A DNA stretch of 64,000 bases, taken from Bdellovibrionales bacterium (GTDB lineage Bacteria; Pseudomonadota; Alphaproteobacteria; Micavibrionales; UBA2020). The translations under genes were made by a program, and so were the position numbers. The stretch spans positions 10,173-74,172 of the forward strand of contig JBBRVE010000002.1 of NCBI GenBank assembly GCA_038247245.1. Reading direction: 5' to 3'. This document shows, in pieces, positions 20,880 to 41,647 of this stretch; the first letter of the stretch is position 1; each line of letters starts with the position of its first letter. The notes beneath the pieces are model-generated. The model did not search any database. It was given only the letters and a program-made list of their open reading frames with translations, and was not told the DNA's origin.

Positions 20880-20956
20880 GCGCCCATAGCTCAACTGGAT
20901 AGAGCATCTGACTACGAATCAGAAGGTTAGGAGTTCGAATCTCTTTGGGCGCACCA
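20880..20956 (+). tRNA. tRNA-Arg (anticodon ACG)
   Basis: Hand-folded cloverleaf: acceptor GCGCCCA/TGGGCGC, D-arm GCTC..GAGC, anticodon stem TCTGA/TCAGA with loop CTACGAA, T-arm AGGAG-TTCGAAT-CTCTT, and an encoded CCA. Confidence 0.95.
20912..20956 (+). repeat. attL core (3' 45 nt of the intact tRNA-Arg)
   Basis: CTACGAATCAGAAGGTTAGGAGTTCGAATCTCTTTGGGCGCACCA, identical to 41603-41647. Confidence 0.9.
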
Positions 20957-21000
20957 TTATTTCAAGCACTTAGGTGCTTTCTCGGTTATCTAATAAGTTA

Positions 21001-21024
21001 CCAAGTGACCTATAAGTGACCCAA
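21001..21024 (+). repeat. 24-bp repeat CCAAGTGACCTATAAGTGACCCAA (two AAGTGACC 8-mers 11 bp apart), attL-proximal copy
   Basis: Exact second copy at 41462-41485. Candidate integrase/excisionase arm-type binding sites. Confidence 0.6.
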
Positions 21025-21837
21025 AAACCTCCACAAAAGACCGAATCTCCCCCGTATCTCGCGCACGAACTCGCCAGAAAAGACTTATTCGAATATTCGG
21101 ATTTGTATTCCGATGCGGATATTCAGGCGATTTGTGCGCGGCATGAAATTTCGTTTGAAGATCGCGGCAGGGTGTTTGGCGCGGTGCTGGATTTTGCAGC
21201 GAAGAGGTATGCAGCGCTGAAATATCGGGAGTCGATTGATCTAAGTCCCTCCGAAACCGGCAGGCATCTGACCAGCCTGCGCAGGGCAGCGAAAGAACTG
21301 GCTGCGGAGTTAGGGCGGCTGCCGCCCGCATCGCGCGAAGTTTTCGACAAGGCCGAGGGCGAACTGCAACGGGAACTCGAAAACCGGCTGGAAGAAGTTT
21401 CGATGCAGCGCGAGACATCACCGCCAGCGCGCATGGAGCAGGCCGCGACGGGCTCGTTTCATGTTATACGCGACAAAGAACCAACCGATGGCTGGCAGGG
21501 CTGGGAAACGCGCATGGAATATGTGGCGTTCAGGGATATCGAAAATGCGCTGAAGCAACTGCAAATGATTTGCGAAACGGGCATCGGATATTTGCAGCCG
21601 CAAAAGGGCGGCAGGCCGGAAAACAAGGCCATGCAAGTCTGGACGGGAATGCTCAGCGATTTCTGGGCGAAAGACCTAAAGCGCGTCTATAGGGTCGATG
21701 GCTATAAGGGCGAGGTCGTGAGCGATGCGGGTGATTTCCTGACTGATTGCCTTAAGCTCCTCGACCCCGCCGCTATAGACCAGCTCTATAGCCAAATGCG
21801 CCGCTATCGTGAAACCATGCCGCGCAAAAAGGCTTAA
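21016..21837 (+). CDS. hypothetical island protein
   Basis: 273-aa ORF with a GTG start lying inside the 24-bp repeat. Protein-like composition, no recognised domain. Confidence 0.6.
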   Translation: MTQKPPQKTESPPYLAHELARKDLFEYSDLYSDADIQAICARHEISFEDRGRVFGAVLDFAAKRYAALKYRESIDLSPSETGRHLTSLRRAAKELAAELGRLPPASREVFDKAEGELQRELENRLEEVSMQRETSPPARMEQAATGSFHVIRDKEPTDGWQGWETRMEYVAFRDIENALKQLQMICETGIGYLQPQKGGRPENKAMQVWTGMLSDFWAKDLKRVYRVDGYKGEVVSDAGDFLTDCLKLLDPAAIDQLYSQMRRYRETMPRKKA

Positions 21838-22046
21838 GGCATCGCTATAGTCCAGCATTTAAGCCTTTCACCTTAAGCCTAGCCTTAAGCCGCTATAGCA
21901 ATCCCTATAATTCCCTAATCCCAACATTAACTGCCCGACAGAAAGAGGCAGTTAATGTTTCTGGGTTATCACCAGTGCTTTGAAATGACGAAGCTGCTGC
22001 CTTGCGCAATGCTGTCCTCAGGTAAAACCAGAGTCGAGGATGACAA

Positions 22047-22274
22047 ATGAGCGCAACAGAGAAAACATCAGGGCAGGACGACATGAACCGCCTGATCAAC
22101 GAAACGGAAGCGGCGGGGTTTTTGGGATATTCCATCCGCGCCCTGCAAAACTGGCGATACAGGGGAGGTGGGCCGGATTTTGTGAAGGTGTCGCGGCGGT
22201 CGGTGCGTTATCGCCGCAAAGACCTGATCGCCTGGGCGGATCGCAACACAGTTTCCAGCACATCGGAATACTGA
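22047..22274 (+). CDS. AlpA/excisionase-family helix-turn-helix protein
   Basis: 75 aa. The pattern LINETEAAGFLGYSIRALQNWRYRGGGPDFVKVSRRSVRYRRKDLIAWA matches the HTH_17/AlpA pattern (L...E.A..LG.S...L......G..P.....G.R.V.Y...DL..W). Confidence 0.8.
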   Translation: MSATEKTSGQDDMNRLINETEAAGFLGYSIRALQNWRYRGGGPDFVKVSRRSVRYRRKDLIAWADRNTVSSTSEY

Positions 22275-22975
22275 TGCGCCCGCCCCTACATCCTCCTGTG
22301 CAACCCGTCACGCAACCTTATGGCTTCGTGGCCAACCTGCGGGTCCAGCGTGCAGCAGGTTTTGATGCGGATTTACAAAACATGACCTTCCGTGTTTTCG
22401 CACTGATAGTGACCTATGCCGACAAAAACGGCGAATGTTACCCGTCGATTGCCAAAATGGCGAAAAAGCTGGGCGTATCGCGGCAGGCCATACAAAACCA
22501 GATACGCAAGCTGGTGGATAAGGGCTATTTAAAATCCTGTCCCCAGACCAGCCGGACAAACATTTATAAAATCCTGCAACCAGCCGCAGGTTGCCCTGCG
22601 CCGCAACCGCATGCAGTTGACACCGCCGCAACCCCATTCGGTTGCCCAAAGATACCCCTTAAAAAAACAGATAAAGACCACCGATTGCATTCAAGGGTAG
22701 AGACAAAATGGGGCGGTCAGCGCGCGTATTATCAGGAAAAGCGAAGGGAACATGAAACGGGCATATCCAAAACCGATGAAGTGGAGTTGCAAATGTTGCG
22801 GGAACAGGCGCATCACGGTTTAAATGTCGGTCAGCGCATCGAAATGGATATGGATTTACAGGCCAGTGCCACGCGGTTGCATCCAAATCACAAACAGCGC
22901 CACGAATATTTGAAATCCCGTTATGCCGCTTTGCGTGACGCGACAGCCCGCGAAGCGGTCATCCAAGCGGAATGA
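22274..22975 (+). CDS. winged-helix DNA-binding protein (HTH_36-like, replication-initiator-like)
   Basis: Start at MRPPLHPP, overlapping the upstream stop (TGATG). Motif FRVFALIVTYADKNGECYPSIAKMAKKLGVSRQAIQNQIRKLVDKGYL. Confidence 0.75.
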   Translation: MRPPLHPPVQPVTQPYGFVANLRVQRAAGFDADLQNMTFRVFALIVTYADKNGECYPSIAKMAKKLGVSRQAIQNQIRKLVDKGYLKSCPQTSRTNIYKILQPAAGCPAPQPHAVDTAATPFGCPKIPLKKTDKDHRLHSRVETKWGGQRAYYQEKRREHETGISKTDEVELQMLREQAHHGLNVGQRIEMDMDLQASATRLHPNHKQRHEYLKSRYAALRDATAREAVIQAE

Positions 22976-23438
22976 AGCAGTATCAGCCCGCTTCACAAGC
23001 GGTTAATCAAGCACAATTCAAGTGTGATTAACGGCGCTTCAAACTACAGGTGAAGCGCGAATTGGCACGATTTCAAGCCCTCGCCAAGCAGAAGTTTGAT
23101 AAAACTATCGCTTCGTAGCGTGTTTAAGTGGTTGCGAAGCCCATGCAAGCGGGGTTTTCTAAGTAGTCGTCCCCTTTTCAGGGCTTAAACACCAAGTATA
23201 GCAAGCCGATTAGCTTTCTCATGACCTGAAGAGGTGATCACGCGCTGCACTCGCCATCAATGGAAGGCTAGATCTTACATTTTGGTATATCAATGCGGAG
23301 CGCGTTCTCGACTGCGGTTCTATCGTGACGGAGTGCAACGGAAAGATTATCGCGAAAACAAGCATCCTGCCGAAGCCGTAAGCGGCCTTTCGGAACAAGA
23401 AACACTTCAGCATTCACCTGTTCAAGCGGAGACGTTCC

Positions 23439-23750
23439 ATGAAGGAAGGCCTGTCGATAAAGTTCAACGACAAATCGAGGTTCCTGAAGCCTGCACCCAA
23501 GCCCACGATCAAGAATGAGAACGACATCAAGGTCGGCCACCGCATCGAAGCGGAGGGCTCGAAGATCGCCGTCCGGGGCGGCAAGATCGTGAGCCGATGG
23601 GAGTCCCTGCTAAAGAAAGACCCCAGGAGCCGACACGAGACACCCAAGCAGAAACTCAACGATTACCGCCAGGCCGCTGCCGAAGCGGCTGCGCGCAAGC
23701 ACAAGGCGGCTCGCGCCCACCGCAAGCCCAACGGCGCGCCGACACCCTGA
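23439..23750 (+). CDS. small basic hypothetical protein
   Basis: 103 aa, Lys/Arg-rich, with GGAGA 8-9 nt upstream of the ATG and a terminator directly downstream. Confidence 0.5.
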   Translation: MKEGLSIKFNDKSRFLKPAPKPTIKNENDIKVGHRIEAEGSKIAVRGGKIVSRWESLLKKDPRSRHETPKQKLNDYRQAAAEAAARKHKAARAHRKPNGAPTP

Positions 23751-23765
23751 CGAAGGGTGAAGCCT

Positions 23766-23803
23766 AAACACAACGGCCTGCCTTGCTGGAGGCCGTTGTG
23801 TTT
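23766..23803 (+). terminator. rho-independent terminator
   Basis: AAACACAACGGCCT / AGGCCGTTGTGTTT 14-bp stem ending in a T run. Confidence 0.75.
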
Positions 23804-23836
23804 TCCAGTCTTGCAGTGTAGGGGTCACTAACTACA

Positions 23837-24022
23837 TCACTTGCACGGCTTGCTAGTTGCCGATTGAGCATCCTCAGACTTTTGCGCCCTTGTAGCATCG
23901 TCCTCTTCGATTATGTGCCCGCATCGAACGGTAATCGCAGGTGTAAGAACGACATATGCTCCATACGAAAGCATTGCTGCTGCAATTAATCCGACAAGAG
24001 CGATTTTATACCGTGATTTCAT
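23837..24022 (-). CDS. putative immunity protein of orphan toxin 4 (single-pass membrane peptide)
   Basis: 61 aa with one TM helix (IALVGLIAAAMLSYGAYVVL). Starts 11 nt after the toxin stop. Assigned by position only. Confidence 0.5.
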   Translation of the reverse strand: MKSRYKIALVGLIAAAMLSYGAYVVLTPAITVRCGHIIEEDDATRAQKSEDAQSATSKPCK

Positions 24023-24032
24023 TGACTATCCC

Positions 24033-24773
24033 TTAATTGAGGGGTGGGGGCGTAATTGTTACAGGCACGGGTAGTGATATGGACTTCGACGATGCTGTGA
24101 TGGATTGCCATCCCAGTGGTGCCTCAAGAGTGGCTCCGGAAAAACGGCCTACCTTAGTCCTGATGGTTACATCACCGGGCGAGCCGATCATTGTTATGCT
24201 CTTTCCAGGAAACTTTTTGGCCAGCCAATACGCAAGCCTGCCATTAAAGCTGTTAATGCCTCCCTGCGAGCCGCCACACACAAGAGAATGAATTGGCTTA
24301 TCTGGCGTGTAACCAGCGTCAAGCATATCCTGTCCAACTTCTTCAAACGAAAGCAGTGATCCTCCTTCTTCAGCAGTCGATACCGCGTATGGATCATAAA
24401 GGCCGGAACTTTCGTTCTTTTTACCGTGTGCGCCCAAAGTAAAATAATTGGAATTATTGTATGAATGGTTAGCACGCCAACTCGTATAATTATCATAACT
24501 CCATGCCATTGACATTTTGTTAACATCTACAAGCCCGAGATAATCGCTGTATCTGATCGGGTTCTGACCCACGTAATTGAATAAGTTAGAGCCTCCGTTG
24601 AAACCAATCGGATCACTTTGCACATACCTTCCTACCTTTATGGCAACCTGATTATCCCGTCCGCGCGCCTGAATCTCATGTTCCTGCAAAATGTTGCCGA
24701 TGCCGTCGTAGGCACAGGCTGTCAAGTAAGCGGTGGCGAGTTCTTCGGAAATGGCGCAAATGTCGCGGGGCAA
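24033..24773 (-). CDS. orphan Rhs C-terminal toxin cassette 4
   Basis: Carries the Rhs core-end motif VGRYVQSDPIGFNGGSNLFNYVGQNPIRYSDYLGL, then a unique ~170-aa C-terminal domain. TTG start with GAGGA 6 nt upstream. Confidence 0.8.
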   Translation of the reverse strand: MPRDICAISEELATAYLTACAYDGIGNILQEHEIQARGRDNQVAIKVGRYVQSDPIGFNGGSNLFNYVGQNPIRYSDYLGLVDVNKMSMAWSYDNYTSWRANHSYNNSNYFTLGAHGKKNESSGLYDPYAVSTAEEGGSLLSFEEVGQDMLDAGYTPDKPIHSLVCGGSQGGINSFNGRLAYWLAKKFPGKSITMIGSPGDVTIRTKVGRFSGATLEAPLGWQSITASSKSISLPVPVTITPPPLN

Positions 24774-24803
24774 GCGGATTCCTCAAAGCGGGAGTTCAGG
24801 TTG

Positions 24804-25286
24804 TCAACTTACGCCGCCCCTCGTCGAAGAGGCGAGCCTTAATAGTATTTTGTCAGCTGACTGTTTAAATGAATGATACACCTCCAAACCTTCTCTTCTT
24901 ATAGCAACGTCAAGTTTGGCACTAAGTTGCTGGAGTATATTGCTTGCATCTTCAACTTTTCCTTGACGCTCACAATACAAAGCAAAATATATTTCAAGAG
25001 AGCCTTCTCGCTCAAGATTGGTGTATCCAAGCGCTATAACGTTATCATGTAATTCCTTCACCATCGAGAACTGCGCGTTATGATCGCAAAAGAGCATCAT
25101 TTTCCACTCTGCCACTCTGCGTCTGACCTCCAATTTTGATTCTTCCGACGACGCTAACGCTAGACAAGTTTCTTCCGCCTCATTTAGAGTGGGTCCAATT
25201 TCGGCTATAGGCTTTTCGAACGCACGAGCTGCAGTTGTATCCAATATTCTCGCGATTCTTCTGGATTCATTCTCACTATTTGTCAT
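24804..25286 (-). CDS. putative immunity protein of orphan toxin 3
   Basis: 160-aa, helical-looking cytoplasmic protein starting 9 nt after the toxin stop. Low GC. Assigned by position only. Confidence 0.6.
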   Translation of the reverse strand: MTNSENESRRIARILDTTAARAFEKPIAEIGPTLNEAEETCLALASSEESKLEVRRRVAEWKMMLFCDHNAQFSMVKELHDNVIALGYTNLEREGSLEIYFALYCERQGKVEDASNILQQLSAKLDVAIRREGLEVYHSFKQSADKILLRLASSTRGGVS

Positions 25287-25294
25287 TACGCAAC

Positions 25295-25978
25295 CTATTT
25301 TGGTGAGGAAAAATTCCAGTAGTCACATCTGGCTAAACCGCTGCCACTAAGCGTACTAGAGGGCCATTCTCCCTCTCTGACGCATGCCTGCCTGCAAAGG
25401 TCGCAACGTCCGGAATTAGGAGCGCTACCGGGCAGATCATCTAACGATGTGTCCAGACAGCTGACGTAATGCGCCTGACAGCTTTTACCTTCATCCGATT
25501 TTTTAGGGATGGCTGGGGGCGGCGCAGGGGGCGCATCCCCTCCTGTTCGGGGCGATGACTTGTTGCAAGCAGAATTTGGATCTTTATGACATTGTTCAAT
25601 CTGCTTTTGGATGATGTCGGCAACTATGATACCAGTGATTACGAGCACGCACCCTTCCATAACAAGAGCCACTGCATTCCCTGTCGGGTCAATGTTCATC
25701 ACAGGGTTGACGTTGGCGTAGTTGAAGGTGTTGAGGCCGCCATAGATGCCGATAGGGTCGGATGAGATATAGCGGCCAACAGTTGCCTCTGACGCAGCTT
25801 CGCCGTACCGAGGGGCATTTTCTCTAGACGCTGTAAGAGCTTGCGGATAAAAATTTCTGCCGCGCCTGCCACTTCCGTAAAAAATTTTCTCTGACGCGCT
25901 TTTTTCCGCGCGCAGCGACATTCCGGCGAACATGCCGGGCGGCGGTGCGGATGGCTGCGGGTGCTGGCTAAGAAGCAA
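25295..25978 (-). CDS. orphan Rhs C-terminal toxin cassette 3
   Basis: [35 protein letters not shown], followed by a hydrophobic helix (AVALVMEGCVLVITGIIVADII) and a Cys-rich tail. TTG start with AGGAG 8 nt upstream. Confidence 0.75.
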   Translation of the reverse strand: MLLSQHPQPSAPPPGMFAGMSLRAEKSASEKIFYGSGRRGRNFYPQALTASRENAPRYGEAASEATVGRYISSDPIGIYGGLNTFNYANVNPVMNIDPTGNAVALVMEGCVLVITGIIVADIIQKQIEQCHKDPNSACNKSSPRTGGDAPPAPPPAIPKKSDEGKSCQAHYVSCLDTSLDDLPGSAPNSGRCDLCRQACVREGEWPSSTLSGSGLARCDYWNFSSPK

Positions 25979-26055
25979 GATTATTTCTCCTGCCTCAAGT
26001 TTCCCTCACCGGGGCGCGCGGCGCAAGGGGCGTTTTTTGGCATTGGAGGGCCTTT

Positions 26056-27174
26056 TCAGGCGGTTTGGTCGGGTTCTGCCTCGTCGGCATCCAGCACCCG
26101 CGCAAGGGCTTCCTGCGCCTCCGGGGCGGGCGCGCTGCCGGGCTCATGCTGCGCCCGGTGCAGGCGCGCGGGGTGCGTGGCGGTATGGATGGCTTGCAGC
26201 TTGTCGATGGCGACATGTGTGTAAATCGCCGTGGTTTCCAGTTTTTCATGGCCGAGCATGGCTTGAAGGAAGCGTATATCCGCGCCGCCTTCAAGCATGT
26301 GCGTGGCGCAGGCGTGGCGCAGCAGATGGGTCGCCCCCGGCTTGTTTATCCCGGCGCATTCCATGTACTTCCTCATGCGCGCGGCGATGAAGGCGGGCAG
26401 GCACGGCTCCCCGTAATCGGTCACGAACAGCGCTTCATGCTCGTGCGTGAGCAGCTGCGGCCTGCCTTCGAGCAGGTACTTGTCGAGCCATGCCAGCGCC
26501 CTCTCGCCTATCGGCACCACCCGGTCGCGCTTGTTCTTCCCTTCGCGCACGGCGATAAGGCGGCGGTGGAAGTCGGCGTCATAAATGGCAAGGTTCGCGG
26601 CCTCCGTCCGGCGCAGGCCCGTGCTGTACAGCAGTTCCAGCAGCGCCCGGTCGCGCAGGCCCATCGGGTCGCTAGGGTCGGCCTCGGCCAGTATCGCCTC
26701 CACCTCCGGGATGGACAGCACCACGCGCGGAAGCCGCTTGCCGTCGCGCGGAATGTCCAGCTCGGAAGCCGGATTGTAAAGGATATGGTTTTCTCTCGCC
26801 AGCCAACGGAACCAGAGTTTCAGCGGCACAAGGCAGCCCATTTGTGTGCCGGAGGTGAGCGGCTTTCCGTCCGGCTTGCGGTAGTAAAACAGATGCCGCT
26901 GGTAACGCTCCACCACCTGCTTGCTCACATCGGCGGGTTTCATCAACCCGCGCTCGTCGCACCACACGATAAAGCGCCGGATGGCGACGCGGCGCGACTG
27001 CACGGTGTCGGCGCTGTAGCCGTGCACGGCCAGCCATTCCAGATGTTCGTGCATGTAGGGCAGCATCGGGTGGTCTGCAAGCGGGTCGCGGGCCGCTGCT
27101 TGCGGCGGGCGCGGCGGCTTGCGCGCGTTGCGTTTGCGCGTCTTGATGCGCCAGCGCAGGCCCTTGGTTGTCAT
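26056..27174 (-). CDS. tyrosine-type site-specific recombinase (XerC/D-like)
   Basis: 372 aa. Motifs GLRRTEA, HLLRHACATHMLEGGADIRFLQAMLGHEKLETTAIYTHV (R...H..R...Y catalytic set). The start overlaps the upstream stop (ATGA). Confidence 0.92.
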   Translation of the reverse strand: MTTKGLRWRIKTRKRNARKPPRPPQAAARDPLADHPMLPYMHEHLEWLAVHGYSADTVQSRRVAIRRFIVWCDERGLMKPADVSKQVVERYQRHLFYYRKPDGKPLTSGTQMGCLVPLKLWFRWLARENHILYNPASELDIPRDGKRLPRVVLSIPEVEAILAEADPSDPMGLRDRALLELLYSTGLRRTEAANLAIYDADFHRRLIAVREGKNKRDRVVPIGERALAWLDKYLLEGRPQLLTHEHEALFVTDYGEPCLPAFIAARMRKYMECAGINKPGATHLLRHACATHMLEGGADIRFLQAMLGHEKLETTAIYTHVAIDKLQAIHTATHPARLHRAQHEPGSAPAPEAQEALARVLDADEAEPDQTA

Positions 27175-30158
27175 GGATACGACACGGCGGCGGGGCCGTG
27201 GCCGTTCAGGGCGCGCGATTCAGGGGCGGATTCCGCGTTTTGCGCGGGAATGGCTGTGGCTATTGGGTTTTCTGCGTTTTCGACGCCCCGACCGCCCGCC
27301 GACAAGGGGCCGACTGGCCCCCGACCGGGGGCCGACCGCGCGGCATTTAACCCCGACCGGGTTTTGTCGTAGTCGAGTTTTGCCGGGTCGATAAGCCCGG
27401 ACAGATGCGGCGCGGCGTTGTCGTCGCCGTCATGCAGCAGCTCGTAATGGAACAGTCCCGCAGGCCCCCGGTGCAGCAGCAACAGCTCAAGGTCGGCAAG
27501 CCGCGCAAGATGCACTTTTAGCTGCGTGTCGGAGACGCCCGTATGGTCGCGCAGCTCCTTGCGGCTAAAGCGAATGTCCCGAGGCGGTAGCTTCCTTGCG
27601 GCAGCGCGGGCCTGCACCATCTGCCGGATGAGGCGCAGCAGCCGCCTTGTCTGCGGCGGCAGCTCGTCAAGGGAGCGGCCAAGGACTTCATGCGCCAGCG
27701 TGGTTGCGCGCGCAATATCCTCGCGCGTGGCCTCGATGTAGGAGATTGTTTTCTCGCCTTGGGTAAACGTGCGGATGGGCCGCTGGTGCTGGTGCAGCAG
27801 CGCAATCACGTCGATAAGAGTCAGATACTTTTCATGGTCGCGGCGGGTGCGCGTCCGGTCGTCAAGGAAGGTCAGGCGGTCGGCGTATGGGTTCACCACG
27901 AACAGCGGCTGCAGGAGCCGCTGCGCGTTCTGTTGCAGGGCCAAGATCCCGGTTTTCGCGGCCTTGGCCTGCAAGCCGTCGAGCGTTCTTTTAGCCCGCT
28001 GCTTCTCATGGATGGCGCGGGTCTGCTCCCGCCCTTCATCCACCGCCAGCACAAGGCAGCGGTTCATCAGCTCTTCGTCAATGTCGATGGCCGTGGTCGT
28101 CGTTATCAGCGCGGCGGGGCCTTCGACTCTGTATTCCTGCGTCACCAGATTGCCGTTGGCGTCGGCTCCGGTGCTGGCAATCACCAGCTCTCCCTCGGAT
28201 TGCAGCAGCTTCAACGCATAGGCGGCGCGCTGCGCGCCCTGTTCCTCCGCTATCGCCAGCACTTTGTTTTTAAGCGCGTCCTTGCCCATGTAGTACAGGC
28301 TCTGCCCGGTCACGGCGCTGTATTTCACCTTGTGGTCGTCGGGCATGAAGGCCAGCACCGCGTCCATGACGGAAGTTTTCCCGCCCGCGCTGCTCGACTG
28401 GATAACGACGCCAAGCGGGTTTTCCAGCTTGCGCGAAGTCGCGGCAAGATAGGCCGTCAAGACGTTGGTTTCCTCGCCCACCATCCCGCAGCGCACGAAG
28501 TCGGCCAGAATGCGCTCTATCAGGTCAGGCGCGCGCAGCAGCGCAAGCGCGGCCTCGCGCTCGTCCTCCGTCATGTCGGGGGTCGCGGGGTCTTTGGGCG
28601 CAAGCGCCTTGTTAATCTCGTCGTCCTGCACTTCTTCGAGCTTCAGCAGGACGCGGCCCAGCTCCGCTTTCAGCTCATCCTCCTTCGAGCGTAATTCGTG
28701 CGCGGCTGCTTGCGTGAACACCGCGCGGGCGCGGGCGGCGTAGAGGTCAAGCGTATCAACATGGAACAGGTCGCCTTGGCTCACCATCACAATGACTTTC
28801 AGGACGCCCACAGAGAGATTTTTGGGCAGGCCCCGGATGCGCCAGCGGCGCGCGCCGAAGGTCAACAGCACTTCCCGTTCGTTCACCGCGGCGTCGAGGT
28901 CGCAACGCGGCGCAGGCGGCATGGGTGATGCCGGCATGACAGCCGGCGCCGGATTCATAGCAGCTAAAGAAGATGGCACAGCTTCTTTAGTCGCCTCTTG
29001 TGGCGCAGGCTCGACCACGGTCAGTTCAGGCTCCTGCACATCCCGCGCGGGCGCTGTTCCGCTGCCGAGCCATTCGGCCTTGCGGATAAGAGCGCCAAGG
29101 CTTTTATTCGCAGGCTGCACTTTCAGCGCGTACTCGTTGGCGTCAACGCCTTGCGGGAACATGATGCGCCAGCATTCGATTCCAGCCTCCATCAGCTGCG
29201 CCGCAACCTTGGCAGCGCCCCGGTCGCCTGCCTCGTCGCGGTCGAAGGCGATTAACACGCGCTTGATGCCGTGGGTTTTAAAGGCGGTCAGCATTTCAGC
29301 GGTGAAGCCCTCGACGCCATAGGCGGCAGTCACATTGCGGAAGCCCGCGCACCAGAAGGTCGCGGCGTCCAGCAGGGCTTCGCACAGGATAATTTCTTTG
29401 CTGGCCGTCAATGCCTGCACGTTCCATAGGCCCTTGTGCGGCCCCGGCAGATACAGGTGCAGCGGTGTCCCCTTACGCAAGTTGTTCAGCAGCTTCCGGC
29501 CATAGATTTCCTGCACGTCGCCCTGCGGGCCGAGAATAGGAACAACCAACGAGCCGTTAAAGTGTTCATGGCCGCTTTCGCGGTAGATGCCGAGTTTTTC
29601 CAGCCGCGCGCGGATGGCTGCGCCTTCTTTCCGGGTTTTGTCCGGCAGGCGCAGGCCCAAGCTGCGGTCGGCAAGGCCGAGTTTGAAGGTGTCGATCAGC
29701 TCCGCGTTGTCCAAGCCGCGCTCTTTCAGGTAGGCGAGAGCTTCCGGCGATTGTTTCAGGCGGCTGTGATAATAGGCAACAACATCAGCCAGCAGCTTGT
29801 TGTCCTCCGCGTCCACCGTCACAGGCGCGGGCAAGGCCCGCACCGTGCTGCGTTTTACCGGGGCCTCTGTCACTTCGGACAGGCCCTCACGCAGCAGCTC
29901 GACCGCATGACGGAAGCTGACGCCGTTTTTCTTCATCACCCAGTCGACAACGCCGCCGCCAGCGCCGCAGCCGAAGCAGTTAAACAGGTTCTTGTCGCCG
30001 GATACGCGGAAGGATGGTGTCTCTTCCTCGTGGAACGGGCAGAGGCCCACATGGTCTTTGCCCTGCTTGGTCAGTTCCACGCCCGACGATTCGACCAGAC
30101 GCAGCAGCGAAGTTTCATTTTTTAGCCGCTCTATCTCTGCATCCGGGATTCTCGCCAT
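27171..30158 (-). CDS. DNA primase (zf-CHC2 plus Toprim) fused to a P-loop NTPase/helicase-like domain and a C-terminal DNA-binding region
   Basis: 995 aa. Zinc finger CPFHEEETPSFRVSGDKNLFNCFGCGAGG, Toprim ILCEALLDA...AFDRDEAGDRGA, and Walker A-like QSSSAGGKTSV. Confidence 0.85.
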   Translation of the reverse strand: MARIPDAEIERLKNETSLLRLVESSGVELTKQGKDHVGLCPFHEEETPSFRVSGDKNLFNCFGCGAGGGVVDWVMKKNGVSFRHAVELLREGLSEVTEAPVKRSTVRALPAPVTVDAEDNKLLADVVAYYHSRLKQSPEALAYLKERGLDNAELIDTFKLGLADRSLGLRLPDKTRKEGAAIRARLEKLGIYRESGHEHFNGSLVVPILGPQGDVQEIYGRKLLNNLRKGTPLHLYLPGPHKGLWNVQALTASKEIILCEALLDAATFWCAGFRNVTAAYGVEGFTAEMLTAFKTHGIKRVLIAFDRDEAGDRGAAKVAAQLMEAGIECWRIMFPQGVDANEYALKVQPANKSLGALIRKAEWLGSGTAPARDVQEPELTVVEPAPQEATKEAVPSSLAAMNPAPAVMPASPMPPAPRCDLDAAVNEREVLLTFGARRWRIRGLPKNLSVGVLKVIVMVSQGDLFHVDTLDLYAARARAVFTQAAAHELRSKEDELKAELGRVLLKLEEVQDDEINKALAPKDPATPDMTEDEREAALALLRAPDLIERILADFVRCGMVGEETNVLTAYLAATSRKLENPLGVVIQSSSAGGKTSVMDAVLAFMPDDHKVKYSAVTGQSLYYMGKDALKNKVLAIAEEQGAQRAAYALKLLQSEGELVIASTGADANGNLVTQEYRVEGPAALITTTTAIDIDEELMNRCLVLAVDEGREQTRAIHEKQRAKRTLDGLQAKAAKTGILALQQNAQRLLQPLFVVNPYADRLTFLDDRTRTRRDHEKYLTLIDVIALLHQHQRPIRTFTQGEKTISYIEATREDIARATTLAHEVLGRSLDELPPQTRRLLRLIRQMVQARAAARKLPPRDIRFSRKELRDHTGVSDTQLKVHLARLADLELLLLHRGPAGLFHYELLHDGDDNAAPHLSGLIDPAKLDYDKTRSGLNAARSAPGRGPVGPLSAGGRGVENAENPIATAIPAQNAESAPESRALNGHGPAAVSYP

Positions 30159-34133: not shown

Positions 34134-34574
34134 TTACTCCAACCCCTTAGAGTGCTGGCGGTTCTTTTCTATTGCTTTAAAATGTTTCTCGGAACGCTTT
34201 AGGTCATTAATAAACGCTACAGCTACCGTAGAGATATGAGCTTTGGCATTCTTGGCGCAGCCTTTATCAATCATCTGAAGTAGCACCTCGCTGTCTTGAG
34301 TGAGGAATGGGCGTTTAACTTGCCTGTCAAACACATTGTAGCCGGAAAAATAACCTAAAACCCAAGCGGCATTCTCCTTTTCAACGGCAGAGCCAGTGCG
34401 CCGATGGGTCAACCATTCCGAGCAGAGCCGGTTACTTGCATTTGGATCAATTATCTCGGGGTGTGAATTAAAATATCCATCCTGCTTCGGTGAAGCACTC
34501 ACGCCTTCCCCTTGAAAAAAAGCAACCATCGCCAAGACTGATAAAAGCCCGAGTATGTTCGTCTTAATTTCCAT
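34134..34574 (-). CDS. putative immunity protein of orphan toxin 1 (signal peptide, periplasmic)
   Basis: Start placed at MEIKTNILGLLSVLAMVAFFQGEGVSA. 146 aa. Lies immediately downstream of the toxin ORF (the extended ORF overlaps it). Confidence 0.6.
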   Translation of the reverse strand: MEIKTNILGLLSVLAMVAFFQGEGVSASPKQDGYFNSHPEIIDPNASNRLCSEWLTHRRTGSAVEKENAAWVLGYFSGYNVFDRQVKRPFLTQDSEVLLQMIDKGCAKNAKAHISTVAVAFINDLKRSEKHFKAIEKNRQHSKGLE

Positions 34575-34588
34575 CAAGCGTTTCCTCT

Positions 34589-35275: not shown

Positions 35276-35338
35276 TGTAATTCCTTAAAGCCAGAGGTTT
35301 AAGTTAGTGCAGAAATCAAGTTAATCCGCCCCCTTTGA

Positions 35339-35578
35339 TTATTCTTTGCGTCGCAACTCCCACAAACGCCCTTTCAGAGCGGCAACAGCTTTTTCAAAAT
35401 CTGTAAGTGCAAACTTCCAAGTACCGCCATCCTTGGGACTAAATATTTCAATCTGCATTTCGTCAAAGCCTTCTTCTTGAGTCATGACGCATACTATCTG
35501 ATCGTCAAAATATAGGTCGCCAACAAGGTCCTCGTGGTCGGGATCACTACCTACAGTAATGCGGAAACGCGGGTTCAT
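35339..35578 (-). CDS. putative cognate immunity protein of the full-length Rhs toxin
   Basis: 79-aa acidic protein. Its ATG overlaps the rhs stop (ATGA). Confidence 0.65.
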   Translation of the reverse strand: MNPRFRITVGSDPDHEDLVGDLYFDDQIVCVMTQEEGFDEMQIEIFSPKDGGTWKFALTDFEKAVAALKGRLWELRRKE

Positions 35579-38500
35579 GGTTCTAAGAATCCCATGAAAT
35601 TACCTCCGGCATCATATCGCGCGCCGCCGCCAAGCGAACCGCCATAATAATCTGTTCCGCCAAACCTGTTACTACTTGTCCTCTTCACATTTCCCAATAT
35701 ATCGTTAAGAAGCTCTTGGCCTTTAGAATTCTTGGCGGCGACGTTTCCTGTCGCCTCTGGGAATACTGTTCCTTCACGACGCCCATGCTTTTCTAATGCA
35801 CGACCTGCTTTCGTTAACTGTCCACCTTTATCTATAGCTTGCCCTGCTTTGCGAAGCGCCTCTATATCACCGTGGCAATTCTGTGCGCTCTTGCGGAACG
35901 CGCCCTTAAGAATTCCACCTGCTCCGCTAACAACTCCTGCTCCAGCTGCCGCTTCTATGCCTGTGGTGAGTGGGCCCCATGGATTTATCTGATATTCAAT
36001 ATCCCCGGTCACATCTGGCGCGTTGGCGTAGTCCGCATAGAAAATAATACCAGCGGCGAAGGCAAGGGGGATGAAGAAAAATTCCCCGGTCGGGTCAACC
36101 CAGTTCACCGGGTTCTGCCCGACATAGCCGTAGGTGTTGAGGCCCCCGGCAAGACCGATGGGGTCAGAGGATATATAGCGGCCAAGCGTCGGATCATAGT
36201 CGCGCATGTAGTTGTAGTGGAGGCCGGTTTCGGCATCCGCGAACTGGCCAGGGAAGCGCAAGTTGCTCGCTGCCGCTCCCGACGTTGCATAGGTTTCGCC
36301 GAACGGCTCCTGCTGGCGGTCCCAGACGACGGCTTGCGTCGCGTCGGTCATTTTCTGGGGCGTGTTGAGGTGGTCGGGGTGGACGTAATAGATCGTGCCC
36401 GCCGCCTCGATCTGCGCCAGCGGTATGTTGCCGAGCCAGATGTATTCGCGCAGGTTGGTGCCGCTGCCATCTGATTCAGCTATCAGGCGACCGACTTCGT
36501 CGTAGTGAAAGTGGACGGTCGTCGTGCCGTCGGATTTGCTGACGCGCTGGCCAAGCGCATTGACCTTGTAGGTCGTGGTGGTGCTGCCCACCAATACGGA
36601 TTCAAGTCGGTTGCGCCCACCATAGGTGAAACTCACGTCGGGGTCGGTGGCGCGGTTGTCTGTCGCGGTATTGCCCGATGCCGTATAGGTGAAGCTGCGC
36701 GTGTTCGTGCCGTCGTTGATGCTGGAAAGCTTGTTGCTGCCGCCCGGCAGGGTCGAGGTCTGCGTGACGCCGCTTTTCACGCGCGTCAGGCGGTTGGCGT
36801 TGAAGTCATAGGTGTAATCGACCGTTCCGTAAGCGCCGACTGCCTGGCTGAGCCGGTTCAGCGTATCGAGCGTAAAAGTCTGGTTACGGCCAGATGCAAG
36901 GTTGTCGGTGATCGCCGTAATGTTGCCTGCGTTGTCATAGGCGATATCGAGGTCCTGCACATGCGTCGCTCCGTCCTCCGTCACGATATCCGTCAGCCAG
37001 TAGTTCTGGTCGAATGTCCGCGCCAGTGTGAGGCTGTTGCCGTAGGTTAGTCCTTTCAGCGGCCCGAAAGGCTCATACGTGATGCTTGATGCCAGCGTCG
37101 CGGGCGTGCCCGTGCTGGTCGCCACCGTGATGATCTTGCCGTGACTGTCATAGGTATAAGTCACAGTGCGCCCAGACGGATAGGTGACTTGGGTCACGCG
37201 GTTGGCGACATCATAGGCATAGGCCGTCGTGTAGGTCTGCGCGCCGATAGTGCGGACGCTTTGCGTCACGTTGCCCACATCGTCATAGGTGAGCGCCGTC
37301 GTGCCGCTTTCATCGGTGATGCCCGTCAGCCGCCCGACGCCCTTGTTGCCGCCCGATGTACTGTCATAGGTGAAGGCCATGTTTTCGCCGGAATAAGCCG
37401 GGAAGGTGACGGTCAGGGGACGGTTGAGCGCGTCGAAGGTACGGTTGGTAACGACGCCACGCGCATCGGTCTGGCTGGTGACGTTTTCCGCGAGGTCGTA
37501 GTTATAGACGGTCGTGCCGGTGTCGGGGCTGGTGGCCTGAATCACGCGGCTGAAGCCGTCATAAATGTAAGTGGTGGATAGTGTGCGGAAGTCGCTCTGG
37601 CTCGTCGCGTTGTCGCGGGAGTCGTAGCCGGTCGATGCCACTTTCGTCAGCGGATCGGTAACGGTTATCAGGCGGTCGAGCGCGTCGAACGCCATGTTTG
37701 TGGCATTGCTGCGCGCGTCCGTTGCCCGCGTACGGTTGCTGTTGGCGTCGTAGAGATAAGCGGTCGCCTGCGGCGAAGACGCGCCTATGTTTTTCTTGAG
37801 CCGCGAAATCTCGTCGAATTCGCGTGCCTGTTTCGCCCGCAGGGCTGGGGTCGCGTTTTTAACGTCTTCCTGAATAATGTTTCCGTCGGCATCCAGCGTG
37901 TATTCGATGCGCTCGCCCGCTTCGTTCTCGACCGCCGTCAGGCGTTGCGCATTGTCGTAGGTGTAGGTGAGTGTGGTCGCATCGGGCAGCGTGATCAGCG
38001 TCACCAGACCCGCCAGGTCGTAATCAATCGTCGTGACCTGATTACCCGCCGTCGCATTCACCGTGTAGGTCTTCAGCCGCCCCAGATCGTCATAGGTGAG
38101 ATCGGTCACAAGGCTGTTTGGATCGGTGAAGGACAGCGGCCTGCCCATGTTGTCGTAGGAAGTGATCGACGTGACCTGGCTGAGCGCGTTCGTGACGGTC
38201 GCAAGGTTTTTTTCCGTGCTGGTGTAGGTATAGGTCGTCGTGTCCGTCAGATCGGTGCGCGGGCCATCCGCCGTCAGCACGTTTCCGAGCGCGTCATAGG
38301 TATTGGTCCAGGTGCGGTTATTTCCCGTGGTGGTGTAGGGAACGGTCTGGGTTTGGCTGTCGGTCTGCTTGTAAGTGAGCCTGTTGCCAGCGGCGTCATA
38401 GGTCATGTCCACGGTCAGCCCGGTACGCGTGACCTGCGTCGGCAGACGCAGAGTCGTGTCCCAAGTCGTGCCGATGGTACGCGCCTGCGCGCCGCCGAAG

Positions 38501-39972
38501 GCTTCGGTGCGGCTCGTTTCCAGCCCCGCCGAGGAAATGGTGTGTTTGGTGACGTTGCCCTTCCAGTCAGTGTAATTCGCGGCGAAACCGTTGGCGTTGT
38601 AGGTGAACTGGGAATTTGCGGCGGGGACCGATCCCACGGCAAGGCGGTCGATGCGCGTGACTTTCGGCATGCTCTGGAGCGTTGAAAACGTGTATTTGTC
38701 CTGGCCGCCGAGCGGGCCGGTGACGGTTCTGGTGCCATCGACGTTGTAGGTGATGGTGGTCAGGCCTGCGCCGCCTGCGTGCTGGCTGGAAGTTGCCCGC
38801 CCGGTCGTGCTGTCATATGCCCATGTGGCGTAGCGGTTGCCCAGCTCGTCCGTGATGCCTGTCAGGTAGGTGGGGAAATTCGTGTCTTCGTAAAGATACG
38901 TGATGACCGGATTATCCGTTAGGCTGGGCGTGCTGTCGGGATACGTGACGGTCGATAAAATTTTCGTCAGCGCAGTGGTGCTCGGATAAGCATTGACGTA
39001 GCCGTACGTGTAAACCTCGCCGTTCGGGTCGGTCACCGTGTCCACCAAGCCGTCGCCATTGTAGGTGAGCGTCAGCGAGCGGCCCAGATTATCGGCAACC
39101 GTCGTGAGCTTGCCGGAGCTATAGGTGAGGGTCTGCGTGTATCCGTCAAGAAAGGCAATCGACTGCAATACGCCGGTGCTGTTGTAGGTCTCAACCGTTT
39201 TGTCGCCATCCGTCAGCAGCCAGTTGCTACCGGACTGGACGAGTTTGAGGACCACGTCGGTGTCGGAACTCCACACGCCACCCGACTTGTTAAAAATAGC
39301 CCGCTGTCCGTCGCCGCGCCACGCGCCCCATTTGGTAGAGCCGCTGTTTTCGAGAAAGCGCTCGTAAATGTTCCGCCAGCCTGGCCCCATCACGCCGTTC
39401 GTCAGGCGGATCTGGCTGTTATAGGTCCGCGCGAAAATGAGCGGGTGCGCGCCGGAGCCTTGGATATCGATCTTGGTCTCGAATTTATTGCCTGTGCTGA
39501 CGGTAATCGGATTGCCGCATTGGGGTTTCGAGACCCAGGGCGCATCTCCGCTCACGCCCTCTCCCAATGCAGGATCTGGGCACGCCGCGCCAAATGTCTT
39601 ACGCCCCGCTGAAACCGAGCAGCCGGATGTTGACCACGCATTTTCATCAAGGCCTGACGGGCAGCCCGACCGGATACTGAGGCTGCGGGGCAAAGTCAGG
39701 TAAAAATATTTGCAGATCCACATCGGGTGGCTGTCGCCGAACACGTCCACGCGAGATCCCATCACGAGGTCTCCGTAGGGTGATGCGTAATACGCTTTGA
39801 TGCCATCGCAGACCAATTGCGCCGTCTGGCACGAATAGCCGGGTCCCGCCCCTTGGCATCCGGAAATCAGTTGAGGGCTCGTTTCCCAGTAATACGTCTG
39901 GGCTTGCGAGGGGGACGATATGAATAGAAAGGCGAGCACAACGCCAAGCGTCATTCGGTTGAAATGTTTCAT
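35575..39972 (-). CDS. Rhs/YD-repeat polymorphic toxin with Sec signal peptide and variable C-terminal toxin domain
   Basis: 1465 aa. Signal peptide MKHFNRMTLGVVLAFLFISSPSQA, a Cys-rich ~140-aa region, the shell start GNPITVSTGNKFE, dozens of YD/RHS repeats (Y.YD..G....) and the core end [38 protein letters not shown], followed by a ~190-aa tail. Confidence 0.95.
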   Translation of the reverse strand: MKHFNRMTLGVVLAFLFISSPSQAQTYYWETSPQLISGCQGAGPGYSCQTAQLVCDGIKAYYASPYGDLVMGSRVDVFGDSHPMWICKYFYLTLPRSLSIRSGCPSGLDENAWSTSGCSVSAGRKTFGAACPDPALGEGVSGDAPWVSKPQCGNPITVSTGNKFETKIDIQGSGAHPLIFARTYNSQIRLTNGVMGPGWRNIYERFLENSGSTKWGAWRGDGQRAIFNKSGGVWSSDTDVVLKLVQSGSNWLLTDGDKTVETYNSTGVLQSIAFLDGYTQTLTYSSGKLTTVADNLGRSLTLTYNGDGLVDTVTDPNGEVYTYGYVNAYPSTTALTKILSTVTYPDSTPSLTDNPVITYLYEDTNFPTYLTGITDELGNRYATWAYDSTTGRATSSQHAGGAGLTTITYNVDGTRTVTGPLGGQDKYTFSTLQSMPKVTRIDRLAVGSVPAANSQFTYNANGFAANYTDWKGNVTKHTISSAGLETSRTEAFGGAQARTIGTTWDTTLRLPTQVTRTGLTVDMTYDAAGNRLTYKQTDSQTQTVPYTTTGNNRTWTNTYDALGNVLTADGPRTDLTDTTTYTYTSTEKNLATVTNALSQVTSITSYDNMGRPLSFTDPNSLVTDLTYDDLGRLKTYTVNATAGNQVTTIDYDLAGLVTLITLPDATTLTYTYDNAQRLTAVENEAGERIEYTLDADGNIIQEDVKNATPALRAKQAREFDEISRLKKNIGASSPQATAYLYDANSNRTRATDARSNATNMAFDALDRLITVTDPLTKVASTGYDSRDNATSQSDFRTLSTTYIYDGFSRVIQATSPDTGTTVYNYDLAENVTSQTDARGVVTNRTFDALNRPLTVTFPAYSGENMAFTYDSTSGGNKGVGRLTGITDESGTTALTYDDVGNVTQSVRTIGAQTYTTAYAYDVANRVTQVTYPSGRTVTYTYDSHGKIITVATSTGTPATLASSITYEPFGPLKGLTYGNSLTLARTFDQNYWLTDIVTEDGATHVQDLDIAYDNAGNITAITDNLASGRNQTFTLDTLNRLSQAVGAYGTVDYTYDFNANRLTRVKSGVTQTSTLPGGSNKLSSINDGTNTRSFTYTASGNTATDNRATDPDVSFTYGGRNRLESVLVGSTTTTYKVNALGQRVSKSDGTTTVHFHYDEVGRLIAESDGSGTNLREYIWLGNIPLAQIEAAGTIYYVHPDHLNTPQKMTDATQAVVWDRQQEPFGETYATSGAAASNLRFPGQFADAETGLHYNYMRDYDPTLGRYISSDPIGLAGGLNTYGYVGQNPVNWVDPTGEFFFIPLAFAAGIIFYADYANAPDVTGDIEYQINPWGPLTTGIEAAAGAGVVSGAGGILKGAFRKSAQNCHGDIEALRKAGQAIDKGGQLTKAGRALEKHGRREGTVFPEATGNVAAKNSKGQELLNDILGNVKRTSSNRFGGTDYYGGSLGGGARYDAGGNFMGFLEP

Positions 39973-40148
39973 GGACGCCTACTTTGTGTGGAGATGGGGT
40001 AATAGATAATTTTAAGCGCGAGCTCGTTAAGAAAGTATCAATAATCTCGAGTTGTAATTAAAATTAAACACTTGTTCTTAATTTTAGTGCATATCGGCGA
40101 ATGCAGCGCCTTCCGAGAACCTGAGGTATCTGATGACGGGTTTAACAG

Positions 40149-41459
40149 CTAAACGTAATATTTTATAGCCGTGTCGTCCTTTGTCATTGATTTCTTATCA
40201 AGAGAAATCACATTTGAATTATCTGAAGAAATATATTGCATGATACGTTCTGACCATTTCAAAAGCGCTTGTTCCTTTTCTTCACCATATTCGTATCTGT
40301 TATAAACAGCTGCAACACCGCTGATAATTCCATTCGAGTGATTGAGGATTTTCTCGATCACATGCGGCGCGACGCGCAGGCTTGCCATGTGGCTGGCGGC
40401 GCTGCGGCGGAGGTCGTGAACGCGCCATTCTGGCAACGCATCAAGGTCTTGGCGGGTTTTGAGGCTTTCGCCTTGTTTGATTGCGCTTTCGTGCCTTTCA
40501 TTCCTTATTCTTTGAACACGCTTATCAAGCGCATTCTTTCCTTGGGTAAATCCCGAATAAGGGGTTGTGCCTGTCGTCGTAAAAACGAGGTCGCCCATTT
40601 CAGGCGCTTTTTCTAGCAGGCTTAAAGCGAGCGCGGAAAGCGGCACATCATGCGCACGGTCGGTTTTGGTATTTTCACGCGGCAAGTGCCAAATCTTATT
40701 TTTGAAATCGATGTCTTTCCATTTAAGCGTGGCGACTTCATTGCGCCTTTGCGCAGTAACAAGCGCAAACTGGATGAAGATGCCATAGGGATAGCCTATT
40801 TCTTCGCAGGCCTCCCAGACGTCTTTAATTTCCAAGGCCGTCAAAACGCGGTCGCGTGAATTATCAGGCGTCTGCTTTGTAACGCCGTCGGCAGGCGAAA
40901 AATGGAGTATGTCGCGCTGCACGCACCACCTAAAAAATTTCTTGATATGGGCGAGGGCGCGATTGGCGGCGATGGGTGCGCCGCGATCCGTAATACGGTC
41001 GAGAATTTTAACGATATTAGCTTTCGTTACCTCATGAACCGGCAACGTACCGATTAGAGGTAGAACGTCATTATCAAAGATGCGCCTTTTTTCTTTCCAA
41101 TGCTTGTTGTGCTGCTTTGCGTATTTCTCGATGAACTGGTCAAAGGCCGAAGAAACGATATAGGCGCTTCTGGCTTTACGCTTTTGCTCGGTGGGGTCGA
41201 TATTGTCGGCAATTTTGGCTAGATGCTTGATGGCGAGGTCACGGGCTGTGTCCAGCGCGATCTTGCCGTATTGCCCGACCGTATGGATGCGCTTGCGACC
41301 GCGATGGCGATACCAGACGATAAAGGCTTTCTTGCCGGACGGATAAATGCGGCAGCCAAAACTTGGTATCTGCGTATCCCAACGGATATCCCATGCGCCG
41401 CTTTCACCGCCTGCATAGGTGAAACTGTCGATATCTCGTTTTGTTAGCTTCTGCGCCAT
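40149..41459 (-). CDS. int: P4-type tyrosine integrase with N-terminal arm-binding (DUF4102-like) domain
   Basis: Motifs GCRIYPSGKKAFIVWYRHRGRKR..TVG, TAQRRNEV, HDLRRSAASHMA and the tail LNHS...ISGVAAVYNRYEY. ATG at 41459; the ORF-track TTG is at 41465. Confidence 0.93.
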   Translation of the reverse strand: MAQKLTKRDIDSFTYAGGESGAWDIRWDTQIPSFGCRIYPSGKKAFIVWYRHRGRKRIHTVGQYGKIALDTARDLAIKHLAKIADNIDPTEQKRKARSAYIVSSAFDQFIEKYAKQHNKHWKEKRRIFDNDVLPLIGTLPVHEVTKANIVKILDRITDRGAPIAANRALAHIKKFFRWCVQRDILHFSPADGVTKQTPDNSRDRVLTALEIKDVWEACEEIGYPYGIFIQFALVTAQRRNEVATLKWKDIDFKNKIWHLPRENTKTDRAHDVPLSALALSLLEKAPEMGDLVFTTTGTTPYSGFTQGKNALDKRVQRIRNERHESAIKQGESLKTRQDLDALPEWRVHDLRRSAASHMASLRVAPHVIEKILNHSNGIISGVAAVYNRYEYGEEKEQALLKWSERIMQYISSDNSNVISLDKKSMTKDDTAIKYYV

Positions 41460-41461
41460 TT

Positions 41462-41485
41462 CCAAGTGACCTATAAGTGACCCAA
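41462..41485 (+). repeat. 24-bp repeat CCAAGTGACCTATAAGTGACCCAA, attR-proximal copy
   Basis: Exact copy of 21001-21024. Abuts the integrase start and lies 118 bp from the attR core. Confidence 0.6.
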
Positions 41486-41602
41486 TTGTAGCGAAACTAG
41501 GCGTTTTGTGGAAAACTCTAGCGTAGAATACAACAGAAAAAAGCTATTGGATACAGCACTTTAGCGCAAAACGGCGAAAGCTGGCGTAACAACCCGATAC
41601 GG

Positions 41603-41647
41603 CTACGAATCAGAAGGTTAGGAGTTCGAATCTCTTTGGGCGCACCA
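41603..41647 (+). repeat. attR core: displaced 3' 45 nt of tRNA-Arg (non-functional fragment)
   Basis: Identical to 20912-20956. There is no 5' tRNA half upstream. Confidence 0.9.

Follow-up and report, generated by a model that had tools for sequence, protein, structure and literature searches.

A genomic island in the tRNA-Arg(ACG) gene of an uncultured alphaproteobacterium with paired repeats proposed as integrase arm sites

Background

ICEMlSymR7A of Mesorhizobium japonicum R7A is an integrative and conjugative element (ICE) that inserts into a phe-tRNA gene by means of a P4-type integrase, IntS. IntS has five arm sites (TGKTGGTATC), all of which are required for integration, and it has been proposed that IntS bound at attP shuts off intS (PMC11963761). 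In Escherichia coli, the promoter of intS in KplE1 (CPS-53), located at argW, overlaps arm sites through which the gene is repressed, and both Int and the directionality factor act as repressors of int (PMC2951348). Here we analyse a 64-kb stretch of DNA (the window; contig JBBRVE010000002.1 of assembly GCA_038247245.1) that contains a genomic island in a tRNA-Arg(ACG) gene. Near each end of the island is a copy of a 24-bp sequence, CCAAGTGACCTATAAGTGACCCAA, holding two units of the 8-mer AAGTGACC, and we propose that these twin repeats are the arm-type sites of the island's own P4-type integrase. As an island of a known type, the element is clear-cut but unremarkable.

Like ICEMlSymR7A, the island is alphaproteobacterial, integrates into a tRNA gene and encodes a P4-type integrase. 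In both elements short arm-type repeats flank the core (within an attP of ~283 bp in R7A) and the 5' end of the integrase gene (int) abuts attP. ICEMlSymR7A has a winged helix-turn-helix (wHTH) directionality factor, RdfS, for which an AlpA-like HTH_17 counterpart is predicted here. The two elements also differ. In R7A intS adjoins the intact phe-tRNA gene (attL), whereas int in the window adjoins the displaced tRNA fragment; R7A has five arm sites, the window two phased AAGTGACC pairs; rdfS lies far from attP in a conjugation operon, whereas alpA in the window is near the tRNA-side arm; and R7A carries a 502-kb ICE, the window a 20-kb island.

In the IntS/TorI system of KplE1 the integrase is likewise P4-like and possesses an arm-binding domain (24% identity to the window integrase, E=8e-27), but intact argW stands co-oriented directly upstream of intS and the regulatory overlap is in attL, not attR. 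Satellite P4 and the P4-like cryptic prophages at leuX represent the founding family of tRNA-targeting integrases, and there too int is adjacent to att. However, at leuX the intB gene comes after the tRNA gene in the same orientation, P4 itself is a phage satellite carrying primase and capsid-size genes, and the twin motif of the window is absent from IMG/VR. Lambda Int, which works with arm sites P1, P2 and P'1-3, integration host factor (IHF) and Xis, is a heterobivalent integrase with arm sites on both sides of the core, and the window resembles it further in a putative IHF-like site between the core and the P' sites and in a small excisionase, here predicted. Lambda differs in integrase subfamily and N-domain family and has no tRNA target; its int is read in the direction of attP, and no promoter that overlaps arm sites controls it. 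The arm consensus of lambda, (C/A)AGTCACTAT, resembles AAGTGACCTAT.

Results and Discussion

A precise insertion in tRNA-Arg(ACG)

The only tRNA called by ARAGORN in the window is an intact tRNA-Arg(ACG) at 20880-20956 on the plus strand (Rfam RF00005, 70.5 bits). The original prediction, made from the sequence of the window, stated that the 3' 45 nt of this gene recur exactly at 41603-41647, and this proved correct. The block at 20912-20956, on the plus strand, starts in the anticodon loop (CTACGAA) and runs to the CCA end; it is identical to 41603-41647 on the same strand, with zero extra matching bases on either side (repeat-finding family D4), and no third copy was found within the window. 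The 5' 32 nt of the intact gene are chromosomal and its 3' 45 nt (the attL core) were supplied by the island at integration, while 41603-41647 (the attR core) is the displaced original 3' end of the tRNA gene. The Islander procedure looks for an intact tRNA gene, a same-strand 3' fragment downstream and a tyrosine integrase inside an interval of 2-200 kb (PMC4383910); all of these are present, over 20.7 kb. The region 20957-41647 is thus a site-specifically integrated genomic island of ~20.7 kb; given the duplication of the 45-bp core, 20912-41602 is an equally valid way to delimit it.

An empty site was sought through orthologues of the M14-like peptidase gene (41757-42647) immediately to the right of attR. 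An orthologue 87% identical was found in the alphaproteobacterial metagenome-assembled genome GCA_016794125.1 (locus L116), where the neighbouring genes are syntenic and tRNA-Arg(ACG) is joined straight to the sequence that lies beyond 41647 in the window. When 20957-41647 is removed from the window, the remainder aligns collinearly with L116 at 82% identity over 492 nt, and AAGTGACC is absent from L116. Judged by this alignment, L116 is the unoccupied attB. Since its tRNA-Arg is joined directly to the right flank of the window, the 20.7 kb are a precise insertion. The original prediction had allowed that the same repeat might stand at this locus in all relatives without any difference in the intervening DNA; L116, being an unoccupied attB, shows that it does not, and the island reading holds. 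The attL, attR and attB sites of an uncultured alphaproteobacterial island family are thereby precisely mapped, and its attP is reconstructed below.

A second relative lacking the island, L118 (GCA_029945425.1, 4468-6000), carries a gene for a 460-aa protein with a guanylate-cyclase domain in the interval that separates the M14 peptidase gene from tRNA-Arg(ACG); variation at this intergenic site thus has other causes too. A search for the same island elsewhere returned only short SRR19962013 unitigs, which are broken inside the 45-bp repeat and uninformative on excision.

Twin repeats on both arms of the reconstructed attP

The 24-mer occurs exactly twice in the window, at 21001-21024 and 41462-41485, both on the plus strand. 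It is still found only twice when up to 3 mismatches are allowed, and shuffled sequences give an expectation of 0.00. In each copy the two AAGTGACC units are 11 bp apart, start to start (21003-21010 and 21014-21021 on the left, 41464-41471 and 41475-41482 on the right). The left copy is 44 nt from the end of the tRNA and the right copy 117 nt from the core, in agreement with the original prediction, which placed them 45 and 118 bp inside attL and attR. It had also reported that one copy overlaps the GTG start of the gene at 21016 and that the other abuts the integrase start, as is indeed the case. We propose the left copy as arm-type sites of the P' arm and the right copy as arm-type sites of the P arm and as an operator of int. 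Elsewhere in the window AAGTGACC is solitary, with four unpaired copies at 33505, 43361, 44049 and 63590, at least three of them in coding-like context. A search for a conserved third arm-type copy found none that is kept across the clade; the candidates were AAGTTACC, 8 bp before the left twin of the window, and AAATGACCTATAA, beside the core of the related locus L011.

Directly after the tRNA end, at 20960-20972 on the plus strand, is TTTCAAGCACTTA, which has one mismatch to the IHF consensus WATCAANNNNTTR. A TTTCAA/ATCAA-N4-TTA block beside the tRNA end is conserved in relatives while the N4 varies, a consensus match that points to a possible role for IHF. The site is overlapped by a hairpin, AAGCAC-TTAG-GTGCTT (20964-20979), that may be the terminator of the tRNA transcript. 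At the equivalent positions in L094, L099, L105 and L108 an island hairpin follows straight after the CCA end of the tRNA, and in several relatives it is a strong terminator-like stem. This suggests that the regenerated tRNA gene receives a terminator from the island itself, which would shield the excisionase operon from transcription running on out of the tRNA.

Joining the island ends gives an attP of ~420 bp that is a divergent intergenic region. Its order is int (leftward), the P twin, 117 bp, the 45-bp core, the IHF-like site with the hairpin, and the P' twin, continuing rightward with the genes for a 273-aa protein (p273), AlpA and a replication-initiator-like protein. The predicted attP junction has the whole 45-bp core between CCCGATACGG and TTATTTCAAGCAC, and the predicted attB junction runs from GAGCATCTGA (the tRNA 5' half) through the core into CTTTTCCTCCTCC. 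Several features expected of the attP of a heterobivalent integrase are found here: a repeated non-core motif on both arms, namely the twin AAGTGACC; conservation of this motif, and its covariation with the integrase, across relatives; and a cognate excisionase gene, predicted at 22047-22274 (HTH_17, phrog_66). Searches of the literature with the 8-mer and the 19-mer spanning its two units returned only unrelated primer matches.

Conservation of the repeats in related islands

The closest integrases, 93, 86, 69 and 66% identical to that of the window, are found on islands with other cargo: an Abi_2 gene and a type ISP restriction-modification (R-M) system in L002, an Rhs toxin in L003 and type I R-M systems in L007-L011. 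The family thus carries cargo for defence and competition, including Rhs toxins, R-M and abortive infection (Abi) systems. Only the two ends, 20929-22820 and 40249-41643, are common to the related islands. In every close relative (66-93% integrase identity) GGTCACTTATAGGTCACTT is found directly upstream of the int start, and wherever both ends are visible the twin is found again, with the same orientation, ~45-65 bp into the island from the intact tRNA. In an alignment of these relatives the flanks diverge, but the twin and a CGCT[A/G]CAAT block do not vary. The insertion in L007-L011 is in tRNA-Lys(TTT) rather than tRNA-Arg; their core differs, and the twin is kept.

Beyond the close relatives, matches to the exact 19-mer are limited to 22 stretches in the JGI metagenome collection, and no IMG/VR contig contains it. 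At least 10 of the 22 copies are 46-67 bp past a tRNA 3' end, six of them with a tRNA called by ARAGORN (Arg-ACG, Asn-GTT twice, Lys-CTT, Leu-TAG and Thr-TGT). Another 3 are just upstream of an integrase 31-33% identical to that of the window, and the remaining copies were left unclassified. In the integrase-anchored loci all matches to the 19-mer are at island ends. The original prediction had raised the possibility that the 24-mer is a dispersed genome-wide repeat unrelated to the island. We reject this because the JGI collection has only 22 matches and IMG/VR none, because the matches in integrase-anchored loci are at island ends and because the solitary 8-mers in the window are unpaired. 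The arm-site code, AAGTGACC with an 11-bp phase, is kept down to ~31% integrase identity and across several tRNA targets, and could aid prospecting of integrase/attP pairs for genome engineering.

Two metagenome contigs, L104 (2958-3067) and L106 (3224-3594), have several tandem units of AAGTGACC or TAGTGACC and an inverted copy ~90-350 bp away, unlike the direct two-arm layout. They may be another type of element that uses the same motif.

Covariation of motif and integrase

A genome scan with an integrase alignment gave 79 loci with 35-66% identity, mostly from Alphaproteobacteria. In five loci both ends could be reached, and each of these has an 8-mer of its own in an 11-bp-phased tandem on both arms. 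The 8-mer is GGTCACTT in L011, which is the window's own motif; GGTGACTT in L013 and L014, both at tRNA-Asp; GTGGCTAC in L035, at tRNA-Lys-CTT; and TGTTACCC in L060, at tRNA-Arg-ACG. An exact 8-mer tandem with a period of 10-12 bp is present upstream of int in 32 of 77 loci, compared with 28 of 712 control segments. One motif class, TGGTACCC, resembles the IntS arm consensus of ICEMlSymR7A, TGKTGGTATC.

The L060 island (9724-12454) is ~2.7 kb long and lies in a tRNA-Arg(ACG) gene on the alphaproteobacterial chromosome OZ251979.1. Its content is int, one AlpA-like gene and two further small ORFs (open reading frames), with TGTTACCC twins on both arms, which is close to a minimal version of the design.

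The integrases that share the window's motif resemble the window integrase more in the N-domain than in the catalytic domain (49% vs 35% identity in L105, 41% vs 29% in L096), and L060, which has another motif, shows the reverse (28% in the N-domain, 50% in the C-terminal part). AlpA of L105, with the same motif, and AlpA of L035, with a different one, are both 44% identical to AlpA of the window. In the sequences compared, AlpA identity is independent of the motif, and it is the integrase N-domain that tracks it.

These comparisons bear on the identity of the protein that binds the twins. The AlpA-like excisionase, or another small regulator, might bind them, in which case they would be operators and architectural sites for the control of directionality. 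Excisionases of the wHTH/MerR-like kind do bind head-to-tail direct repeats about one helical turn apart, as described for RdfS and BldC (PMC11963761), and an alpA-like gene is found in every island with this design and is the first gene past the tRNA-side twin in minimal islands. However, the motif follows the integrase N-domain and not AlpA, as L105 and L035 illustrate; paired sites on both arms that co-vary with an integrase possessing an arm domain are the classical pattern of arm sites; and in ICEMlSymR7A similar motifs (TGKTGGTATC, compare the TGGTACCC class) have been assigned to IntS (PMC11963761). We therefore regard a role of AlpA as the binder of the twins as unlikely.

We favour the reading in which the 24-mer twins are arm-type sites of the island's own heterobivalent P4-type integrase, within an attP through which int would be controlled by arm binding, and give it a probability of roughly 0.78. 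The recurrence of twins at both ends across different cargo, tRNAs and 8-mer classes strongly supports, at the level of sequence comparison, the P/P' arm sites that the original prediction had envisaged. Several points weigh on the other side. The correlation between N-domain and motif is based on a handful of sequences. Since alpA is present in every island seen, its presence or absence cannot separate integrase from excisionase as the binder. The contigs of L002 and L003 terminate within the repeat, which is compatible with a circle or with a collapsed repeat. Lastly, a promoter scan upstream of int gave a 9/12 match, not above that of shuffled sequences, and the alignment of relatives shows no conserved -35 element.

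The integrase lies beside the displaced fragment

The original prediction that a P4-type integrase gene stands beside the displaced tRNA fragment and is transcribed inward was borne out: int, encoding 436 aa, occupies 40149-41459 on the minus strand, reading inward from the attR end. It had also called this an unusual layout. That is true by comparison with leuX-intB and argW-intS of E. coli K-12, where an intact co-oriented tRNA gene is directly upstream of int, and untrue within the integrase subfamily. We screened the 79 loci with a detector of the T-arm, acceptor and CCA end, which recovers leuX-intB and argW-intS as plus-strand matches. A tRNA 3' fragment was found upstream of int and on the opposite strand in 48 of the 79, compared with 3 of 322 control windows, at a distance of 14-513 bp from the start of the integrase match (median 254 bp over the 48 loci). 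An intact co-oriented tRNA, which would appear as a plus-strand match, was upstream of int in 0 of the 79, and in loci with small enough islands the intact tRNA is at the far end. These counts and the far-end tRNAs together make the fragment side the rule for int in this subfamily. The E. coli picture of an integrase beside the intact tRNA thus fails for the whole subfamily, which matters for island finders that rely on int-tRNA adjacency. Panis et al. reported 15% of integrase homologues beside an intact tRNA gene, in a survey that leaves fragment-side integrases outside its scope (PMC2951348). We found no published frequency of int at the fragment end; Islander (PMC4383910), Integrase-On-Demand and the S. 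meliloti paper are silent on it.

The layout and the duplicated 24-mer could also be a functionless local rearrangement, or a tandem or composite island, confined to one genome. The island is indeed a mosaic that includes a high-GC module and a second recombinase. Yet the same layout and twins recur across independent genomes, tRNAs and cargo sets, the window has no third tRNA fragment, and the second recombinase is missing from relatives that keep the att architecture; comparison with these relatives effectively rules this explanation out.

The current understanding of tyrosine integrase mechanism is unchanged by these observations. Their modest interest lies in the subfamily-wide reversal of polarity and in an arm code that persists through changes of tRNA target.

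The integrase gene and a model of its control

The integrase has the three-domain layout of the P4 type (Arm-DNA-bind_3/DUF4102), with Pfam domains Arm-DNA-bind_3 (PF13356), Phage_int_M (PF22022) and Phage_integrase (PF00589) all above cut-offs, and the R-K-H-R-H-Y catalytic residues (R238, K265, H348, R351, H374 and Y386) are invariant in an alignment of 22 integrases. The int ATG is at 41459-41457; 3 nt separate it from the right 24-mer and 143 nt from the core, and the DNA upstream of it is made up of arm and core only. A -10-like hexamer, TACAAT (41485-41490, minus strand), adjoins the twin within the CGCT[A/G]CAAT block and is conserved in the alignment of the relatives' int-upstream regions. 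The P arm twin fills the gap between this hexamer and the ATG, so that arm-bound integrase should block transcription of int. As the promoter call is weak, with the 9/12 match and no conserved -35, autoregulation of int is inferential. Like intS in the KplE1 paradigm, int is transcribed away from att. The STI shape of the KplE1 locus, a regulatory attL by an intact co-oriented tRNA, is not found; here the region is attR, by a displaced fragment, and divergent. By analogy, the mechanism may be that of KplE1 with a different geometry, and self-repression of int by arm-bound integrase is plausible.

In the arm-site model the catalytic and core-binding domains of the integrase would act on the tRNA-derived core, and it is most likely the N-terminal Arm-DNA-bind_3 domain that recognises the AAGTGACC 8-mers. 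In the circle, the 11-bp-phased AAGTGACC pairs would flank the core on both sides, allowing the integrase to bridge arms and core, with IHF presumably bending the P' arm. AlpA would bias the reaction to excision, which should need the integrase, the AlpA-like factor and probably IHF. Each twin would stand at the very start of one of two divergent transcription units, and arm-bound integrase probably represses int, and perhaps the excisionase operon too.

A more far-reaching version of this model, to which we assign a low probability, sees the integrase N-domain, the twin AAGTGACC arms and AlpA as a conserved chassis that has been retargeted to at least 6 tRNA genes with its arm code unchanged, and whose polarity gives state-dependent regulation. 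The excisionase operon, not int, would then be directly downstream of the tRNA promoter, behind the island-supplied terminator, and int would be behind a promoterless tRNA fragment. If this were true, twin-bound integrase would control both divergent units only when they are joined in the excised circle, regulation would differ between the integrated and excised states, and a leaky tRNA terminator could feed excisionase expression.

Backbone genes at the left end

The conserved backbone consists of int, the AlpA-like predicted excisionase, a Rep-like helix-turn-helix protein and the rare 273-aa protein. The p273 ORF (21016-21837, plus strand) opens at a GTG inside the second left 8-mer, with an alternative TTG start at 21103. 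Pfam, PHROGs and NCBIfam contain no family that matches it, and a search of 5.8 billion proteins gave just 6 homologues at E<=1e-5, all apparently from this island family. The protein is conserved in L002, L003 and L115 and has a conserved C-terminal motif, GGRPENKA...DLKR.YRVDGYKGEV..DAG.FLTDCL. The GTG is the called start in three lineages, including the 33%-identical homologue of L115; as conservation is lacking over the first ~25 residues, it is a putative start. The next gene (22047-22274, plus strand) encodes the 75-aa AlpA-like protein, a predicted excisionase or recombination directionality factor (Pfam HTH_17, E=9e-8; phrog_66, 'excisionase and transcriptional regulator'), and is conserved in L002, L003, L011, L093 and L105. 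Its stop is overlapped (TGATG) by the start of a gene for a 233-aa winged-helix protein resembling replication initiators (22274-22975, plus strand; Pfam HTH_36, E=1.4e-14; PHROG replication-initiation families).

The presence of this last gene near tandem direct repeats with an 11-bp phase raises the idea that the twins are iterons for the HTH_36 Rep-like protein and form an origin of the excised circle. Iterons are very improbable here, however: both twins persist in L007-L011, for which neither an HTH_36 nor a p273 gene appears in the gene tables; one of the copies adjoins int, 20 kb away from the rep-like gene; and each site has two units only.

Cargo

The region between the conserved ends, 22976-40148, is variable cargo that is not common to the related islands. 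A main Rhs toxin is encoded at 35575-39972 (minus strand), followed by a putative immunity gene (35339-35578, minus strand). Three or more orphan C-terminal toxin tips come after the main gene, and downstream of each is a small ORF, a possible immunity gene; the orphan tips and putative immunity genes occupy 24033-25978 and 33180-35275. The Rhs core-end motif is found four times, at 25686, 34023, 35010 and 36092.

A module at ~26000-33180 with 62-65% GC, within an island of ~50% GC, apparently splits the orphan array. The module encodes a XerC-like recombinase (26056-27174, minus strand; NF002331, 447 bits), a DnaG-like primase of 995 aa (27171-30158, minus strand), an XRE regulator (30308-30706, plus strand) and a MobQ relaxase (30784-32358, minus strand; NF041496, 214.7 bits where the cut-off is 200). 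At the DNA level, segments of Ralstonia megaplasmids share ~69% identity with the recombinase-primase pair. A search for att repeats flanking 26-33.2 kb gave nothing convincing. The high-GC block may be a nested or recombined mobilisable module. The XerC-like recombinase was considered as the integrase responsible for insertion in tRNA-Arg and rejected, as it is absent from relatives with the same att architecture.

The island ORFs that were scanned gave no match to type IV secretion system domains. Integrative and mobilisable elements encode a relaxase but lack a system for mating-pair formation, and this is the combination found here; the relaxase module is absent from the related islands. 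The relaxase and primase module suggests that this copy of the island is mobilisable by a helper conjugation system. Outside the island, GC content drops to 45% at 10001-11000, compared with ~57% in the surrounding chromosome.

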